The notes beneath the pieces are model-generated. The model did not search any database. It was not told the DNA's origin and worked only from the letters and a program-made list of their open reading frames with translations. The position numbers and the translations under genes are program-made. A stretch of DNA of 45,510 bases from a virus. Lineage: Duplodnaviria > Heunggongvirae > Uroviricota > Caudoviricetes. Numbering within the stretch: the stretch's first letter is position 1; the number at the start of each line of letters is the position of its first letter. The stretch covers positions 1-45,510 of IMG/VR virus record IMGVR_UViG_2778261177_000004. One strand, written 5' to 3'. Below are positions 23,440 to 42,888 of this stretch, one piece after another.

Positions 23440-24234
23440 TTATGGTTCCTTTTTAGTGTTGCTTTGGAGCGCATCGATTACACCTTGTGGCATGATCAAA
23501 CTGATTGCCGGACTCATTACTTCATCGCCCAGTAGAGAACCGGTTAACGTAATGGCTACAGCATTTTCCAGTCCCTGTTTGGCTTTTCCGGTAGAGTCCT
23601 TAACTTGCTGTGCAAGTGTTGAGAGACTACTGCTCGTGTTGTTTATTGCATTTATTTGTTCTGTTGCTGCTTCCACAGCGTCTTTTAGTGCTTTGATCTC
23701 TTCTTCTGTTAGTGCTGGTTGCTGTGTTGTTCCGGTGGAACTTCCGTTGCCTGAAGCCTCCCCGCTTGACGCCTGAACTTTTGCATTTATAGCGGTCATA
23801 GCTGAAGTGATTGGCACCAGTTCAAATGCTGCCAACGCGTCAATAAGCGATTGCGGATGCAGGGTATCTCCCATAACTGTCACGAGAGCAAATTCTGGCG
23901 CAGGAGATAACTCATTACCTTTGACGTAACATTCCCAGCCAATTTTCATCTGAAGTAATTCAGTTGGCGAAGTATACGGAGACAGCGAGTCGGCTAAATT
24001 GGTTGCTTCTGCACTGACAGTTTTCAGTTGTTCTGAAAAGACAGAAAGCTGATTGACCCATGAAACCACCGACGCCGGGTATGCTTTATCCTTCAGGATA
24101 AGAGCCTGGATATTCTCTTCCAGAGAACTGGCATTGGATGACGCTGTTTTACTTAGCGTGATAGATGCAGGCGTAGTTGTGCCTGATGCATTTAGAATTT
24201 TGAATGCGTTAACTTCAGCGATTGAATCAAGCAT
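23440..24234 (-). CDS. hypothetical protein (Ser/Thr/Ala-rich)
   Basis: 264-aa ORF translationally coupled to the PAAR gene. Confidence 0.4.
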   Translation of the reverse strand: MLDSIAEVNAFKILNASGTTTPASITLSKTASSNASSLEENIQALILKDKAYPASVVSWVNQLSVFSEQLKTVSAEATNLADSLSPYTSPTELLQMKIGWECYVKGNELSPAPEFALVTVMGDTLHPQSLIDALAAFELVPITSAMTAINAKVQASSGEASGNGSSTGTTQQPALTEEEIKALKDAVEAATEQINAINNTSSSLSTLAQQVKDSTGKAKQGLENAVAITLTGSLLGDEVMSPAISLIMPQGVIDALQSNTKKEP

Positions 24235-24518
24235 TATGACACCTGAAAAATTGCCTCACCATTGGCGATGACTGAGCCACAAGAAAGGGGATCTCCCACA
24301 CAAACAACTCCTTTCCCGCCTATTGCAAACCATGAGCGCGTCGATACGGCTGATCCGGGGTGCGCGCTATTTCCGTCTGTATGGCTGGGGAACGCTCCCC
24401 CATCTACAACCACTGGCTTTCCATTTACGGTAAACCAGGAAACTGTTTCTGCTACAGGTCGCGGAGGGAATCCTCCATGACCAGAACAAACTGTGTCACT
24501 GGTCGCTATTGCACTCAT
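24234..24518 (-). CDS. PAAR-domain spike-tip protein
   Basis: 94 aa with Gly/Cys-rich PAAR-like repeats (CSGHGG...VNGKPVVVDGG...GGKGVVCVGDPLSCGSVIANG); strong AAGGAGG RBS. Confidence 0.55.
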   Translation of the reverse strand: MSAIATSDTVCSGHGGFPPRPVAETVSWFTVNGKPVVVDGGAFPSHTDGNSAHPGSAVSTRSWFAIGGKGVVCVGDPLSCGSVIANGEAIFQVS

Positions 24519-24539: not shown

Positions 24540-24760
24540 ATCTTCTCCACTTTGTGATTTTCACTCTTCAGATTTCTTACTTCTCATATTTGTCTCTGAT
24601 TTGTCTCAAAAGGGTATCATGGGTACATCATGTATCATCTAAGTCTCTTTTGTGTCTCTTTTACGTCTCTAGTTTGATGCTTTTTACGCTATCTAACTTC
24701 TGGTCTTATTTTGTTTTCTCATATAAAATTCAATTCTTTCTCAAATGTGTCTCAGAAGTG
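24540..24760 (+). promoter_or_regulatory. parC-like centromere/promoter region upstream of parM, with repeated TGTCTC and ATCATG motifs
   Basis: CT-rich region with repeated short motifs directly upstream of the ParM gene, analogous to R1 parC. Confidence 0.4.
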
Positions 24761-24767
24761 GAGCAAT

Positions 24768-25727
24768 ATGATGCGCATTTTTATCGACGATGGTTCTACC
24801 AATATCAAAATGCTGTGGGAACAAGACGGGGAAACTCGAACCCATATCTGTCCGAACAGTTTTAAACGTGGATGGTCCGCCACATTTGGCGCAGGAAAGC
24901 CGTTTAACTACATCATTGATGACGAAAAATATTCATATGACTTGATTTCGCCGGATGTGCTGCCGACGAATAATGTGGAATGGCAATACAGCCCGCTTAA
25001 TGTGCTTGCTGTTCATCATGCCCTGCTTACAAGTGGCATTGAGCCTCAAGAAGTGGAAATAGTTGTCACGTTGCCACTGGCAGAGTTTTATGACGACGAC
25101 GCACAATACAACATGAAAAATATTGAGCGGAAAAAGGCCAGCCTGATGCGACCAGTCACCCTTAACAAAGGTCAGGTTTTTACTATCAAAAAAGTGACTG
25201 TGCGCCCGGAGTCAATACCCGCAGGGATCGGTCTGTGCGACAGCCTTGTGCCAGCGCATTCTGTGCTTATTGTTGATCTTGGTGGGACTACTCTGGATGT
25301 GTCGATGGTCGCCGGGCAAATGACCGCCGTTTCTCGCGTATTTGGCGATTCTAATCTCGGCGTTTCGCTGGTAACTAAAGAGGTCAGACAGGCACTTGCA
25401 AAAGCGAATACCGAAACCTCTAATTATAATGTCGATCAATTAATCATTAATCGTGATGATGAGGATTATTTGACCGACAATATTAACGATCCGTCTGCTA
25501 TTGATGATGTTAAGAAAGCCATTTCGTCAAGCATAGAACGACTCCGTACACGCGTACTGGATGTGATCAGTGATTTCAAAGGATACACGCATGTTATGGT
25601 CATTGGTGGCGGCGCGCCGCTTGTTGCTGATGCTATCCGTGAGCAGGTAAACATTCGTGACGATAGGTTTTTCGTTGCTGATGATCCACAACTTGCTCTT
25701 GTCTATGGTCTAAAATCTATCGGTTGA
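24768..25727 (+). CDS. parM: plasmid segregation actin-like ATPase ParM (StbA)
   Basis: Alignable along its whole length with R1 ParM (recalled from memory), e.g. MMRIFIDDGSTNIK, NVLAVHHALLTSG, MPESIPAG, DLGGTTLD, GDSNLGVSLVT, GYTHVMVIGGGA. Confidence 0.85.
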   Translation: MMRIFIDDGSTNIKMLWEQDGETRTHICPNSFKRGWSATFGAGKPFNYIIDDEKYSYDLISPDVLPTNNVEWQYSPLNVLAVHHALLTSGIEPQEVEIVVTLPLAEFYDDDAQYNMKNIERKKASLMRPVTLNKGQVFTIKKVTVRPESIPAGIGLCDSLVPAHSVLIVDLGGTTLDVSMVAGQMTAVSRVFGDSNLGVSLVTKEVRQALAKANTETSNYNVDQLIINRDDEDYLTDNINDPSAIDDVKKAISSSIERLRTRVLDVISDFKGYTHVMVIGGGAPLVADAIREQVNIRDDRFFVADDPQLALVYGLKSIG

Positions 25728-25737
25728 TGAGGTTGCC

Positions 25738-26103
25738 ATGTCTCAGGAACGTCGAAAAGTATTGTTTTATCTTCGTCCTGGTCTTAACGCCAGTGAGCAA
25801 TATGCTGATGCAAAACTTGAGGGCCATCCATTAAGAGATCGCAATGATATGGCGCGCACAGCGATGCTTGCAGGTATCGCTCTTGGCGAGGTTGATAGCA
25901 GATTACCTCCCATGTTGGCATCGCTTTTATCCGGTGATAATAGCCCTGAAGTGATCAGAAAAATGCTGGTTTCATTTCTTGAAATTTCGCCTGAAGTTCG
26001 GGAAAACCCTGAAGGAAACCCCTCTGCTTCAGCGGATGTTAAAAAACCTGGCGTTTCGAAAAGCCGCTCTGCACAGAATTTGGCAAACTCACTCCCTGAT
26101 TAA
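25738..26103 (+). CDS. parR: ParR-like centromere-binding adaptor (StbB)
   Basis: 121-aa ORF immediately after parM, with an RBS and a terminator after its stop. Confidence 0.55.
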   Translation: MSQERRKVLFYLRPGLNASEQYADAKLEGHPLRDRNDMARTAMLAGIALGEVDSRLPPMLASLLSGDNSPEVIRKMLVSFLEISPEVRENPEGNPSASADVKKPGVSKSRSAQNLANSLPD

Positions 26104-26118
26104 CAAATCTACATCTTC

Positions 26119-26146
26119 AAAGGCTGCAATTTGCAGCCTTTTTTAT
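26119..26146 (+). terminator. rho-independent terminator after parR
   Basis: Hairpin ggctgcaa/ttgcagcc followed by a T6 run. Confidence 0.55.
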
Positions 26147-26149
26147 ACT

Positions 26150-26380
26150 GTTATGGTTCTAACTTGGTGTTCTTTTAGTACCAAAACGGTGTTGTTATGG
26201 TGCTGTTTTGTGTCTGGTTCCACTTTGAGGCTGATTTCGTGTTAAACAGGATGCAAGAGAGGGTAAATTTAGAGTGTTTAGTGTTATACTTTTGCAAAGC
26301 ATAGTGACTCCACTATAGAGCCAAAACCGCATCAAGAAGGCTTCTGTTTGGAACCAGTTTGATACCAAAATAACACCGAG
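26150..26380. repeat. centromere-like repeats upstream of parA (GTACCAAAACGGTGTT family), mirrored downstream of parG at about 27325-27400
   Basis: agtaccaaaacggtgtt (26186-26202), gataccaaaataacaccg (about 26352-26370), aacaccgttttggttcc (27329-27345, inverted) and agtaccagaatggtgtt (27381-27397). Confidence 0.4.
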
Positions 26381-26388
26381 GAACGGAT

Positions 26389-27030
26389 ATGATTATATTG
26401 GTAGTCAGCCAAAAAGGTGGCTGTGGAAAATCAACCACAAGCGTAAACATCTGTGCGGAGCTTGCCCGCGAAAATAAGGATGTAGTGTTACTGGATGCAG
26501 ACAAGCAAGGAACAGCTGCCCGCTGGGCAGCTGACCGTAACACGGCAGAGGTTTCTCCTGTAATTCATTGTGTCCAGAAGTTTGGTAATATTCGAGAAAC
26601 ACTTCTCGATCTGGATAAGCGTTATGAATTTGTAGTTGTTGATACAGCCGGGCGCGATAGCAAAGAGATGCGTACAGGCATAACCGCTGCAGATATTGTG
26701 TTGGTCCCATTCAGACCATCTCAACCAGATTTAGACACGCTGGCACACTTTGTTGAAGTGTTTGAAGAGGCTTTGGACCTGATGCCTAATCCTAGCATTA
26801 AGGCGTTCGCAGTCTTAACAATGGCCCCATCCAATCCGGTTGTGAATGAAACCAATGAGGCCAAAGAGTACCTAGCTGAATATCCGCAACTGAAGTTGCT
26901 GAAAACCATCATTCGTGATCGTAAGGTTTACCGCGATTGCATGGCTGAAGGGAAGGGCGTTGTTGAGATGGACAACGGGAAAGCTAAAGGTGAAATCCAG
27001 ATGTTGGTTAAGGAGTTATTAAGTGATTAA
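26389..27030 (+). CDS. parA: partition ATPase ParA (small ParF-like Walker-type)
   Basis: Deviant Walker A motif KGGCGKST; C-terminal KAKGEIQMLVKELL resembles the ParF C-terminus; 213 aa. Confidence 0.8.
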   Translation: MIILVVSQKGGCGKSTTSVNICAELARENKDVVLLDADKQGTAARWAADRNTAEVSPVIHCVQKFGNIRETLLDLDKRYEFVVVDTAGRDSKEMRTGITAADIVLVPFRPSQPDLDTLAHFVEVFEEALDLMPNPSIKAFAVLTMAPSNPVVNETNEAKEYLAEYPQLKLLKTIIRDRKVYRDCMAEGKGVVEMDNGKAKGEIQMLVKELLSD

Positions 27031-27310
27031 GCCTCGTAAATCGGTAAAAGCCCCCGAAGTAAAAGACCCCGATCTTGAACGCCGAATTGAGGATTTTGCC
27101 AGTAAGGCTGATTTGGTGCCGGGTGAGCAACCAGAAGACAACAAAGTGCTCGATAAGGACGCCCCACGTGATTTTAAATCCATTCGTGTTGGCTTCAATG
27201 AATACGAGTACCAGGTACTTGATGCGTTAAGCAAAAAGCATAATCGCAGCAAATTGAATATGATCCGCCATGCTATCCTCATGCTTGCAGAGTCTGAGGA
27301 TACAAAATGA
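27023..27310 (+). CDS. ParG-like ribbon-helix-helix centromere-binding protein
   Basis: 95 aa, GTG start with AAGGAG RBS, overlaps the parA stop; C-terminal RHH-like segment RVGFNEYEYQVLDALSKKHNRSKLNMIRHAI. Confidence 0.5.
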   Translation: MIKPRKSVKAPEVKDPDLERRIEDFASKADLVPGEQPEDNKVLDKDAPRDFKSIRVGFNEYEYQVLDALSKKHNRSKLNMIRHAILMLAESEDTK

Positions 27311-27422
27311 CGCCGGAATAACACCGTTTTGGTTCCATGTGGTATTTTGATACTACTTTGATGCCTTTTTAGTACCAGAATGGTGTTATTAGTGTACCGT
27401 AATGGCGTTTATTTGATGTTAT

Positions 27423-27442
27423 AAAAGCCCCATATGGGGCTT
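27423..27442. terminator. bidirectional terminator hairpin (aaagcccca/tggggcttt) between parG and dam
   Basis: Palindromic GC stem flanked by A/T runs on both sides. Confidence 0.5.
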
Positions 27443-27445
27443 TTC

Positions 27446-28288
27446 TTAATTGAGCGTGGCTATAATGTCGTTAGCTATCATTCGCGTTGATGCTTTACAG
27501 GATACAGAGCGACGGGATGGCATAGGATACACCTTGAAGCCATTGCCAACGTAAAGTTCGCGAATGTTAGGCGCACCACTGTTTGTTATCACAATTTTCG
27601 CTCCGCGTCTGTGGGCATCCACCAGCAGTGACACCAGCCGTTGTTGATCTTCAAACCTAAAGCTATGCCCTGAGTAATTTGTAAATCCGGTAGTGTCGGG
27701 CAATGGTTCATAGGGGGGATCGCAGAAAATCACATCATCATTCCCGGCAGCCTCAATTACACCAGCAAAATCGCCGGACACAAATTCCGAATACTTTGAA
27801 ATATCGTCAGCCAGGAACGCCTCCATTTCCGCGAGAGGGAAGTGGGGTGATTTCTGCTTTCCATATCCGACGTTGAACTCTCCTTTACGGTTATAGCGAG
27901 TGACGCCATTAAAACAATGACGATTGAGATACAGGAACGCCGCTGCATGGTGAAGGGAATCATAAGCACCATTGTTGAATGCATTGCGAACATTCAAAAA
28001 TGCATCAGCAGAGTTGTAATCCTGAAAAAAACGATATGCCAGTGTGATAAGAGAATGCCCTTCACGCTGCAATGTCTGATAGAAGTTAATCAGGTCATTA
28101 TTGATATCGTTCAGCAGGTTGCTTTTAAATCCGGCATTAGTGAAAACAGCGCCACCTCCAACGAAAGGTTCTATCAACCGTTTTCCGTGGGGCAGGTGTT
28201 CGAAGATAATGGGCAGTGCAGAAAATTTGCCGCCGACCCACTTAAAGACGGGGCGATCAAATTCGTCCTCCGAGCGAATACGTCGCAT
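27446..28288 (-). CDS. dam: DNA adenine methyltransferase (Dam, N6A-MTase)
   Basis: Motifs FKWVGGK, EPFVGGGAV and DPPY. Start set at the ATG at 28288; the track ORF extends to 28480. Confidence 0.8.
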   Translation of the reverse strand: MRRIRSEDEFDRPVFKWVGGKFSALPIIFEHLPHGKRLIEPFVGGGAVFTNAGFKSNLLNDINNDLINFYQTLQREGHSLITLAYRFFQDYNSADAFLNVRNAFNNGAYDSLHHAAAFLYLNRHCFNGVTRYNRKGEFNVGYGKQKSPHFPLAEMEAFLADDISKYSEFVSGDFAGVIEAAGNDDVIFCDPPYEPLPDTTGFTNYSGHSFRFEDQQRLVSLLVDAHRRGAKIVITNSGAPNIRELYVGNGFKVYPMPSRRSVSCKASTRMIANDIIATLN

Positions 28289-28355
28289 ATGGCTGATAGT
28301 GGCTTCCGCCGCAGGACGATGATTGTCGCTATAAGAAATAAATTTAGCACCAATA

Positions 28356-29162
28356 TCAGCCACGGATTCCCTCCTTATTTGCTTCAAATACAGCTCTTGC
28401 AAAACCGTAAGGTGTCGCGCTACGAAAATTCGCTCTTTCAGGTCCTGGCGGTGCCTTGTGTATTCGGTTGTCTGGATCACCTAACGACTCGTCGATTCGC
28501 GGAGTTGGCATGATGAATCCTTGTCCGCTCCACAGGCATGTTTTTTTGGTGTAATTGTCTTCCTTGCAATATGCAGTGAAGTGATAAGGATGGAATATGT
28601 GATCAGGTTTACGCCAGAATGTCGATATTTGGCTGACCGGGTTTTCAATCATGTACGGGCAACCAATCATCTTTGCAATGTCGTAACACTGCCAGACAAC
28701 CTGCATTGCTTTGAACTGGAAAACCGGATCTTTTTTCGCTTTATCTGCGAACCAGCGTGCGCCAGATACAGCCAGGTCAGTACATGGAGGGAAACCGGCT
28801 AAAAATACAACTCTGTGCAAATTTTTCCGAAGGAAATTGTAGACCTCATCACTGTCAATAATTGCGCTGATACGTGTGAGTACAGCACCTGACTCCATCA
28901 ATTGGCTGCCGGACTCCTGGTGTTGCGGATCGACAATGACTGCATCAATGCCGTGTTCCAGCCAGGGGGAAACCATATTCCCTGTATAATCACAAAGACT
29001 CACCGCCAGCGGTCGGTTATTAATGCTCTGCTTCACCGCCAATGGCCTCCACCAGCGAGCTAAACATCGCGGATAATTCGCTTGTGAACAGAATGAAGTC
29101 AGCATCAAATCGCTGGGCAACATCTTCACGGTCGATGTCATCGTTCTGGTCATAGAGATCAT
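28356..29162 (-). CDS. DNA (cytosine-5)-methyltransferase-like protein (short; start uncertain)
   Basis: Motif IV-like GFPPCTDLAVSG and motif VI-like ENP; motif I is degenerate. The ORF start overlaps the rdgC 3' end. Confidence 0.45.
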   Translation of the reverse strand: MISMTRTMTSTVKMLPSDLMLTSFCSQANYPRCLARWWRPLAVKQSINNRPLAVSLCDYTGNMVSPWLEHGIDAVIVDPQHQESGSQLMESGAVLTRISAIIDSDEVYNFLRKNLHRVVFLAGFPPCTDLAVSGARWFADKAKKDPVFQFKAMQVVWQCYDIAKMIGCPYMIENPVSQISTFWRKPDHIFHPYHFTAYCKEDNYTKKTCLWSGQGFIMPTPRIDESLGDPDNRIHKAPPGPERANFRSATPYGFARAVFEANKEGIRG

Positions 29163-42589: not shown

Positions 42590-42700
42590 TTGACTAAGTT
42601 AAGGAGCTACCGCGTGAGGTTCCAATCTCAATGGCGGTAGCACTGACTGGGTTGGAACTACCGGCGTCAAAGGGAACCGGCCTGCCTTTCGGCAGCCCAG
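42590..42700 (-). ncRNA. candidate c4-like antisense/regulatory RNA leader upstream of the icd-like ORF
   Basis: Hairpin gctaccgc...gcggtagc with a 20-nt loop plus complementary GTTCCAA/TTGGAAC segments, directly upstream of the icd-like RBS. Purely structural inference. Confidence 0.25.
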
Positions 42701-42888
42701 CCAGCACTACCATTGATCTCTGAGCTAAACGCTAAGTATGGCTGTGCGATGGCATGACACAAAAAAAGACGCGTTCGGCGTCTGTGTCGCCTTTGACATT
42801 ATCCGGGGTTCCAATCCCGGCACCCGTTTTTCTAAGGTGCCGTAGAAATATACCCCACGATAATGCCAGGGCGCAACTGTGTGTTTTC

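Follow-up and report, generated by a model that had tools for sequence, protein, structure and literature searches.

Probable tandem type II and type Ib partition operons in a D6-like phage-plasmid

Multiple par systems occur in about 19% of the plasmids having any par system, and a 2026 survey listed 971 PLSDB plasmids with a type I system of the ribbon-helix-helix (RHH) kind together with a type II system (PMC13245405). Plasmid pB171 has a double par locus in which parC1 and parC2 flank parAB (PMC4270457), and Shigella pINV has two functional partition systems (PMC6519299). In R1, parC has ten 11-bp iterons, five on each side of a 39-bp promoter core, with one ParR dimer per iteron (PMC2241845). 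In TP228, parH/OF consists of many weak boxes with AT-rich spacers and is both centromere and operator (PMC3130281). For the D6-like prophages of Salmonella, the partition functions have been given as "cop, parA, stbB and parM" (PMC6799933). Here, we analyzed a region in which a type II ParM/ParR system and a type Ib ParA with a small DNA-binding partner had been predicted side by side. It lies at 24540-27445 of a 45,510-nucleotide viral sequence (IMG/VR virus record IMGVR_UViG_2778261177_000004, positions 1 to 45,510), called the window here; all coordinates follow the numbering of the whole window unless another sequence is named.

The type II and type Ib gene pairs

The four co-directional open reading frames (ORFs) of the region lie where the original prediction had placed them, and their families matched a ParMR type II pair and a type Ib ParA with a small partner (Table 1). 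The order of the region is parC-parM-parR, terminator, repeat array-parA-parB-repeat array, and second terminator. Because an intrinsic terminator follows parR and a hairpin follows parB, we read the two operons, each complete, as separately terminated transcription units in tandem and not as one operon. Our interpretation is that this is the partition region of a D6-like phage-plasmid and that it holds two complete, co-directional, separately terminated operons, one type II ParMRC and one type Ib ParABS-like; we give this a probability of roughly 0.85.

The sequences compared with the window were phage D6 (NC_050154; L001), CP042620.1 (L003), p702_18_3 (L010), the Acinetobacter plasmid pEH_mcr4.3 (L008), and an Arsenophonus plasmid (L009). 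The 3.1-kb region is 96 to 99% identical to approximately 90-kb nonmobilizable plasmids of E. coli and E. marmotae, and its coding part is approximately 88% identical to Escherichia phage D6. Judged by sequence identity, the window is part of a D6-like phage-plasmid, that is, a P1-related prophage maintained as an approximately 90-kb low-copy plasmid. In both D6 and the window, the locus has homologues of P1 upfB/upfC (PAAR) on one side and of dmt/hrdC (rdgC) on the other. In GenBank, D6 orf58 to orf61 are annotated as StbA-type partition, StbB-type partition, "ParA-like partition protein," and hypothetical protein, so the locus is ordinary in kind and was already annotated in outline. It was present in 102 of 5,426 complete E. 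coli genomes, in every case on a plasmid of approximately 90 to 96 kb, and in at least 122 PLSDB plasmids, and the four-gene order was retained in every D6-like lineage examined. The pairing had been called unusual for a single low-copy replicon; this is not supported, given the D6 annotation, the E. coli genomes, pB171, and the 971 surveyed plasmids.

Table 1. Features of the partition region
Feature	Position	Strand	Details
Candidate parC for ParR	24575-24669	+	3 + 3 units of 11 bp around a core of ~29 bp; 11-bp register layout
Promoter-proximal (T/G)TCTC units, ~3 (TTTGTTTTCTC, AATTCTTTCTC, AAATGTGTCTC)	24710-24753	+	11-bp register; just 5' of the parM Shine-Dalgarno sequence
parM, actin-like segregation ATPase, 318 amino acids (aa)	24771-25727	+	Alternative ATG at 24768
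parR (StbB family), centromere-binding adaptor, 121 aa	25738-26103	+	Pfam Plasmid_stab_B, 3e-14
Intrinsic terminator after parR, divides the operons	26119-26146	+	10-bp stem, 5 GC pairs, then T run; perfect inverted repeat
Upstream array, ~12 units, candidate centromere/operator for RHH ParB	26146-26290	+	Best five units at 26151-26205
Three more 11-bp units (GTTTGGAACCA, GTTTGATACCA, AAATAACACCG)	26346-26378	+	Abut the parA ribosome-binding site; register layout; matrix gave 1 forward and 2 reverse matches
parA, type Ib Walker-type partition ATPase, 213 aa	26389-27030	+	Deviant Walker A KGGCGKST at residues 9-16
parB, small predicted centromere-binding protein, 95 aa	27023-27310	+	GTG start; AAGGAG ribosome-binding site; overlaps the parA stop
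Downstream array, ~10 units, second centromere candidate	27316-27421	+	9 forward matrix matches; spacing 8-13 bp, mostly 11
Perfect 11+11 hairpin (AAAAGCCCCAT/ATGGGGCTTTT)	27423-27444		Inverted repeat between parB and the convergent Dam methylase gene

ParM aligned over residues 1 to 318 with residues 1 to 319 of R1 ParM in PDB structures (E 1.7e-110) and matched Pfam StbA_N (2e-69) and ParM_N (9e-56). As a stand-in for the pB171-type double par locus, we used pMAR7 (NC_010862), whose ParM was 42% identical. The parR start lies 10 bp beyond the parM stop, and ParR matched PDB 2jd3, deposited as StbB protein (3.9e-7), and was 33% identical to ParR of pMAR7. The pMAR7 protein is identical to the 2jd3 chain across the aligned residues, and we take this chain to be pB171 ParR. 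With a full-length ParM and a ParR encoded directly downstream, the pair is, by homology, a type II system.

In the type Ib pair, ParA has no N-terminal helix-turn-helix (HTH) domain, given its size and its full-length match to the 203-position ParA_partition profile of NCBIfam; it thus has the length (about 200 to 220 aa), deviant Walker A motif, and lack of an N-terminal HTH that mark the small ParA proteins. The profile gave 163 bits over the full length, and the next were VirC1 with 53 bits and MinD with 36 bits; the Pfam matches were AAA_31, CbiA, MipZ, and VirC1. The original prediction had called the protein ParF-like, and ParF of TP228 (206 aa) was indeed its best PDB match (1.5e-18, 70 bits). 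The label is imprecise: the pB171-type par2 ParA of pMAR7 (214 aa) scored 172 bits (43% identity, E 5e-59) and, by alignment score, the pB171 par2 ParA is the closest characterized relative, nearer than ParF. A MinD or Soj identity, which had been named as a finding that would overturn the partition assignment, was rejected, as MinD reached 36 bits and Soj-type structures reached 31 to 40 bits versus 163 for ParA_partition and 172 for the pB171-type ParA. Outside the D6 group, the proposed homology search for separate lineages placed ParM nearest to R1/IncF ParM and ParA nearest to the ParA proteins of Kacie_13 (67%) and Burkholderia (49%).

Next to ParA, the 95-aa partner gave no Pfam match at E ≤ 10, none in NCBIfam, and none in the PDB by phmmer; the best NCBIfam hint was a RelB-like antitoxin (E 0.049). 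A word-indexed homologue search returned close relatives only, and an exhaustive HMMER search gave 101 relatives, from which an 82-sequence alignment was used for the fold. The Pfam families matched by these 82 homologues are mostly recognized RHH families (NikA-like, 27; RHH_1, 18; DUF6290, 14; RHH_7, 6; TraY, 5). A profile of the alignment gave only subthreshold CopG-type matches against PDB sequences (E 0.2 to 0.6). A model built from a shallow alignment had a predicted local distance difference test score (pLDDT) of 57 and no significant fold match. The AlphaFold2 (AF2) model from the 82-sequence alignment had a pLDDT of 89, exceeding 92 for residues 50 to 90, with an N-terminal helix at 16 to 29, an extended segment at 50 to 59, and helices at 60 to 72 and 77 to 92. 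The top 50 Foldseek matches in the PDB were nearly all RHH proteins (CopA_SO, CopG, Arc, TacA1, ParG, NikA, AmrZ, and ParD), with a root mean square deviation of 1 to 2 Å over 40 to 45 residues and probabilities of up to 0.98. This confident model predicts a C-terminal RHH domain at approximately residues 50 to 92.

From the model and the homologues, we conclude that the 95-aa protein is an RHH protein and a putative centromere-binding protein of ParG-like architecture, with a predicted flexible N-terminal part and a C-terminal RHH; we call it ParB. The name ParG given by the original prediction fits the fold and the architecture and not the family. ParG was absent from the 24 families matched by the 82 homologues, and the ParG structure 1p94 was a fold match only, at a nonsignificant E of 0.73. 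Homology to the pB171-type ParB was rejected as well (E 0.13). The N terminus of the protein is conserved and basic (MxKxR), and R20, R21, and F25 are invariant or nearly invariant in the alignments. Homologues of the 95-aa protein always follow a small ParA, and the pair adjoins a replication initiator gene in an 18.8-kb Acinetobacter plasmid, a 34.9-kb Arsenophonus plasmid, and the Kacie_13 plasmid. A par pair beside a replication initiator gene is the classic rep-par backbone.

Compared with homologues that have been solved or characterized, all four proteins have their full length, and there are no frameshifts. Nonsynonymous differences (pN) were well below synonymous differences (pS) in each gene, with a pN of 0.037 and a pS of 0.73 for parM and of 0.24 and 0.86 for parR (both versus D6) and with 0.081 and 0.79 for parA and 0.136 and 0.67 for parB (both versus p702_18_3). 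These values indicate purifying selection on all four genes and, as far as sequence can tell, both systems are alive. Pseudogenization of one system, the other finding that had been named as fatal to the prediction, was thus rejected.

Repeat arrays and candidate control elements

Each system had been predicted to have its own distinct repeats, with TGTCTC and ATCATG upstream of parM. Both were found there. TGTCTC occurs at 24591, 24602, 24653, and 24748, and ATCATG occurs at 24616 and 24627. The shorter GTCTC occurs at 24592, 24603, 24643, 24654, and 24665, 11 bp apart within each cluster, and again at 24749; TTCTC variants share the register of these iterons. The region upstream of parM has periodicity at lags of 11 and 22 bp (z 3.3 and 3.4). 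In the candidate parC, three 11-bp units ending in (T/G)TCTC lie at 24575-24607 and three more lie at 24637-24669, and the core between them (24608-24636) contains ATCATG/ATCATC repeats. The promoter-proximal units could be an extra ParR operator or a leader element. A segment of that region, TTCTCAAATGTGTCTCAGAAGTGGAGCAA, is kept in D6, CP042620.1, and p702_18_3 despite their differing distal repeats.

These three relatives have the same upstream architecture, built of TCTCA-type units versus GTCTC in the window. Their ParR proteins differ from that of the window in the N-terminal (DNA-binding) half, including a 9-residue indel, and the C-terminal ParR tail, NLA(N/D)SLPD in the comparison with D6, and ParM are conserved. 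The type of ParR therefore covaries with the type of iteron, GTCTC in the window and TCTCA in the relatives, and this covariation is the strongest indirect argument at hand for the iterons as the site of ParR binding. By this comparison, ParR would bind the (G/T)TCTC iterons.

Both flanks of parA-parB carry arrays of degenerate 11-bp direct units with the consensus wwwTGGTGyy. Here, the original prediction had described GTACCAAAACGGTGTT-type repeats on both flanks of parA-parG. The repeats are real, but the 16-mer GTACCAAAACGGTGTT runs from one 11-bp unit into the next and is not the unit itself. Autocorrelation of the flanks peaked at lags of 11, 22, and 33 bp (z 3 to 5) in the window, D6, CP042620.1, and p702_18_3, and a coding control was without such peaks; the periodicity of the downstream array had a z of 3.1. 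A weight matrix trained solely on the diverged relative CP042620.1, whose ParB is 76% identical, gave 17 forward matches in the 372 bp of the flanks (45.7 per kb) versus 2.6 per kb in the rest of the window. From that rest, 0.97 matches would be expected (Poisson P ~7e-16), and composition-matched shuffles gave 1.4 ± 1.2 matches with a maximum of 7 (n = 2,000). The spacing between the flank matches was mostly exactly 11 bp. The three units that abut the parA ribosome-binding site may have a role as well.

Arrays of the TGGTG motif also lie downstream of parB in D6, CP042620.1, p702_18_3, Kacie_13, and Arsenophonus, in surroundings that do not align to the window. This persistence of the motif matches the RHH segment of ParB, which is nearly invariant across the relatives. 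Beside the operon of the distant ParA/95-aa homologues in two unrelated small plasmids, pEH_mcr4.3 (L008 4303-4340) and the Arsenophonus plasmid (L009 4310-4345 and 5247-5310), there are also short 11-bp-spaced wwwT(A/G)(G/A)(T/A)ACC-like units. The 11-bp repeat type may be a trait of the whole uncharacterized RHH-ParB family. By analogy with known systems, we infer that the arrays would be the centromere and operator bound by the 95-aa protein.

Further elements are conserved between the operons. For the upstream array, the sequence TGTTATACT is common to the window, D6, CP042620.1, and p702_18_3, and the terminator after parR is kept in the same three relatives. The last unit of the upstream array overlaps TGtTATACT (26282-26290), an extended -10-like sequence kept in four lineages. 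It is plausibly an extended -10 promoter that ParB would repress; the promoter scanner did not call it. Likewise, the hairpin after parB, which is likely a bidirectional terminator, was not called by the terminator scanner. A shared centromere or cross talk of the kind found in pB171 was rejected: matches to the ParB-type matrix near parM were few, weak, and unphased, and GTCTC iterons were absent from the parAB arrays.

In the mechanism that we propose, dimers of ParR would bind along the 11-bp (G/T)TCTC iterons in front of parM and repress the operon. ParR would also cap the actin-like filaments of ParM, and the filaments would push sister plasmids apart. In the second system, dimers of the 95-aa RHH ParB would coat the wwwTGGTGyy arrays on both sides of parA-parB, and the upstream one would also act as operator. 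Through its basic or helical N-terminal part, ParB would increase ATP hydrolysis by nucleoid-bound ParA, so that plasmids would be positioned via a ParA-gradient (diffusion-ratchet) mechanism. Because the proteins of the two systems are unrelated and so are the repeats, the systems could act independently and redundantly. We infer the DNA binding, autoregulation, ATPase stimulation, promoter positions, and stability contributions in this scheme from homology and architecture.

Module exchange and alternative explanations

Several observations weigh against two complete partition operons. The ParA score of 163 bits is below the 180-bit NCBIfam equivalog cutoff. The 95-aa protein is without a significant sequence match to any characterized centromere-binding protein, and the Foldseek E-values behind its fold are nonsignificant (at least 0.2), which is because the RHH domain is tiny. 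The iterons upstream of parM number 3 + 3, possibly with approximately 3 more that are promoter proximal, versus 5 + 5 in R1. A sigma-70 consensus scan gave no convincing promoter for either operon, and a literature search found no experimental work on this element or on D6. With these caveats, two complete operons are still our best account of the region.

Nucleotide identity to D6 varies along the locus in mosaic fashion. It was 75 to 81% in the PAAR gene, 73 to 92% in parM, about 40% in the parC of the parMR operon, 50 to 66% in parR, and 74 to 78% in the upstream array, and then 99 to 100% in parA-parB (window 26330-27280 versus L001 5600-6560) and about 50% in the downstream array. The genes flanking the parA-parB cassette were 75 to 90% identical to those of D6. 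For parA, pS versus D6 was 0.021, whereas it was 0.62 to 0.73 for the neighboring genes, which implies that the parAB cassette moved between lineages recently. The same comparison points to replacement or diversification of ParR and its iterons relative to D6. Additionally, p702_18_3 has another parAB allele in the same slot (ParA 84%, ParB 73%). The sequence comparisons thus support independent allelic exchange of the modules.

The alternative that survives best, which we consider improbable, is that only one system partitions the prophage and that the other is a redundant passenger or a decaying remnant, retained through linkage or recently acquired. There is a precedent in SCP1: of its two par systems, only one is important in the laboratory (PMC13245405). 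In addition, the near identity of the parAB cassette to that of D6 implies that one of these lineages acquired it recently. In CP042620.1 (L003 1767-2726), parM is broken by several frameshifts, and parR, parA, and parB are intact; this could be a decaying type II system or a set of assembly errors. In the window, the four genes are full length and under strong purifying selection across lineages with nearly saturated synonymous sites, and the four-gene order is kept in every D6-like lineage examined; both points argue against this alternative.

It is far less probable that the ParA/RHH pair has a function other than partition, as a repressor with an ATPase partner, a MinD/Soj-like cell division or chromosome factor, or a lytic-growth function. 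Many RHH proteins are simple repressors or antitoxins. The 95-aa partner is without an annotated family and had the RelB-like hint mentioned above, and ParA also matches the MipZ and VirC1 profiles. Against this, the ParA_partition score is well above those of VirC1 and MinD, and the identity to the pB171-type par2 ParA extends over the full length. On small plasmids, homologous pairs adjoin rep genes, and the multicopy phased arrays on both flanks exceed the needs of a simple operator. There is no toxin gene after the RHH gene, and all 102 E. coli occurrences are on plasmids.

The least credible explanation is that two replicons, each with its own par system, recently formed a cointegrate and left the arrangement as a scar; the different closest relatives of the modules outside the D6 group and the mosaic identity profile would fit it, but there is no second replicon, insertion sequence (IS) element, recombination scar, or junction at the site, in every lineage the locus has conserved phage genes on either side (PAAR/upfC and dam/rdgC), the arrangement is older than the divergence of lineages with saturated synonymous sites, and allelic exchange among related phage-plasmids explains the mosaicism better. 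Of the cointegration or module capture suggested originally, capture therefore stands in the form of independent allelic exchange, and recent cointegration has no support.

As an extension of two complete partition operons, the cassettes might be independently swappable specificity modules, letting cocirculating D6-like phage-plasmids escape or impose partition incompatibility. We regard this as a speculation that is unlikely to be correct in full. The recent parAB exchange and the ParR/iteron diversification fit it, as would a 95-aa RHH protein that, with its TGGTG arrays, represents an uncharacterized type Ib centromere-binding family. A stronger version, in which one system serves prophage maintenance and the other a different life-cycle stage, has no support here.

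Several neighboring features were also observed. Divergent from the parM control region and adjoining it upstream is a gene for a 94-aa PAAR-motif protein (24234-24518, minus strand), a P1 upfC homologue. Downstream of parB, a D12-class Dam methylase ORF (27446-28480, minus strand; Pfam 2e-53) overlaps by approximately 125 bp an upstream 268-aa ORF without a Pfam match (28356-29162, minus strand). D6 has two methyltransferase genes annotated at the Dam position, and the gene table of a 99%-identical plasmid omits the Dam gene; the Dam ORF probably begins at an internal start. In D6 (L001 6843-8504) and p702_18_3 (L010 6838-8499), glnS, encoding glutaminyl-tRNA synthetase, separates the downstream par array from the methylase gene; the window (junction 27445/27446) and its closest relatives are without it. 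Elsewhere in the window, Rfam matched a C4 antisense RNA (42630-42717, minus strand; 77 bits) and isrK (42762-42840, minus strand; 61 bits), a P1-type immunity region, which is consistent with a P1/D6-like prophage.

Comparison with known partition systems

Double loci of type II plus type Ib are well known, so the general picture of plasmid segregation is unchanged by this region. Beyond the earlier annotation, our analysis identifies the orf61-type protein as a predicted RHH ParB, defines both sets of phased arrays, and gives evidence that the modules have undergone allelic exchange independently. Its value lies mainly in annotation, as it proposes a function for the orf61-type protein, so far "hypothetical" in D6-like phage-plasmids, and candidate centromeres for both systems. 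D6-like prophage-plasmids are found in approximately 2% of complete E. coli genomes, and the candidate centromeres could be of use in typing incompatibility, in constructing stable vectors, and in curing these E. coli and Salmonella prophage-plasmids.

The closest system is that of phage D6. Its orf58 to orf61 have the same four genes, order, and genomic position, and the terminator and TGGTG arrays are shared; the two ParA proteins are identical (100%), and between the ParB proteins there are 2 residue differences. In contrast, D6 ParR is only approximately 57% identical, with the 9-residue indel, and the region upstream of parM, with TCTCA iterons in D6 versus GTCTC in the window, is approximately 40% alignable. 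D6 also differs in having glnS downstream of the second array.

Like the window, pB171 combines adjacent type II and type Ib systems on one low-copy replicon and has repeat arrays upstream and downstream of parAB. In the pB171-type locus of pMAR7, the similarities of ParA, ParM, and ParR (43, 42, and 33% identity) are significant, and that of ParB (E 0.13) is not. The operons of pB171 are divergent, share parC1, and have regulatory cross talk, whereas those of the window are in tandem, with a terminator between them and no shared repeats. The arrays differ too, with an approximately 7-bp periodicity and ATCACA/TTCATA-like units in the pB171 type and 11-bp TGGTG units in the window.

With ParMRC of R1, the type II module shares the parC-parM-parR order, a StbB-family ParR, a ParM that aligns end to end, and two clusters of 11-bp iterons around a core. 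The core of the window is shorter (approximately 29 versus 39 bp), and the iteron sequence differs. The type Ib module resembles ParF/ParG/parH of TP228 in that its ParA is small, the next gene overlaps parA and encodes a small protein with a predicted flexible N-terminal part and a C-terminal RHH, and its arrays consist of many short, degenerate boxes with AT-rich spacers. The boxes of parH are ACTC every 8 bp versus TGGTG every 11 bp in the window, where the arrays lie on both flanks. ParF is more distant from the ParA of the window than the pB171 ParA is (70 versus 172 bits), and the partner has no ParG match in Pfam.

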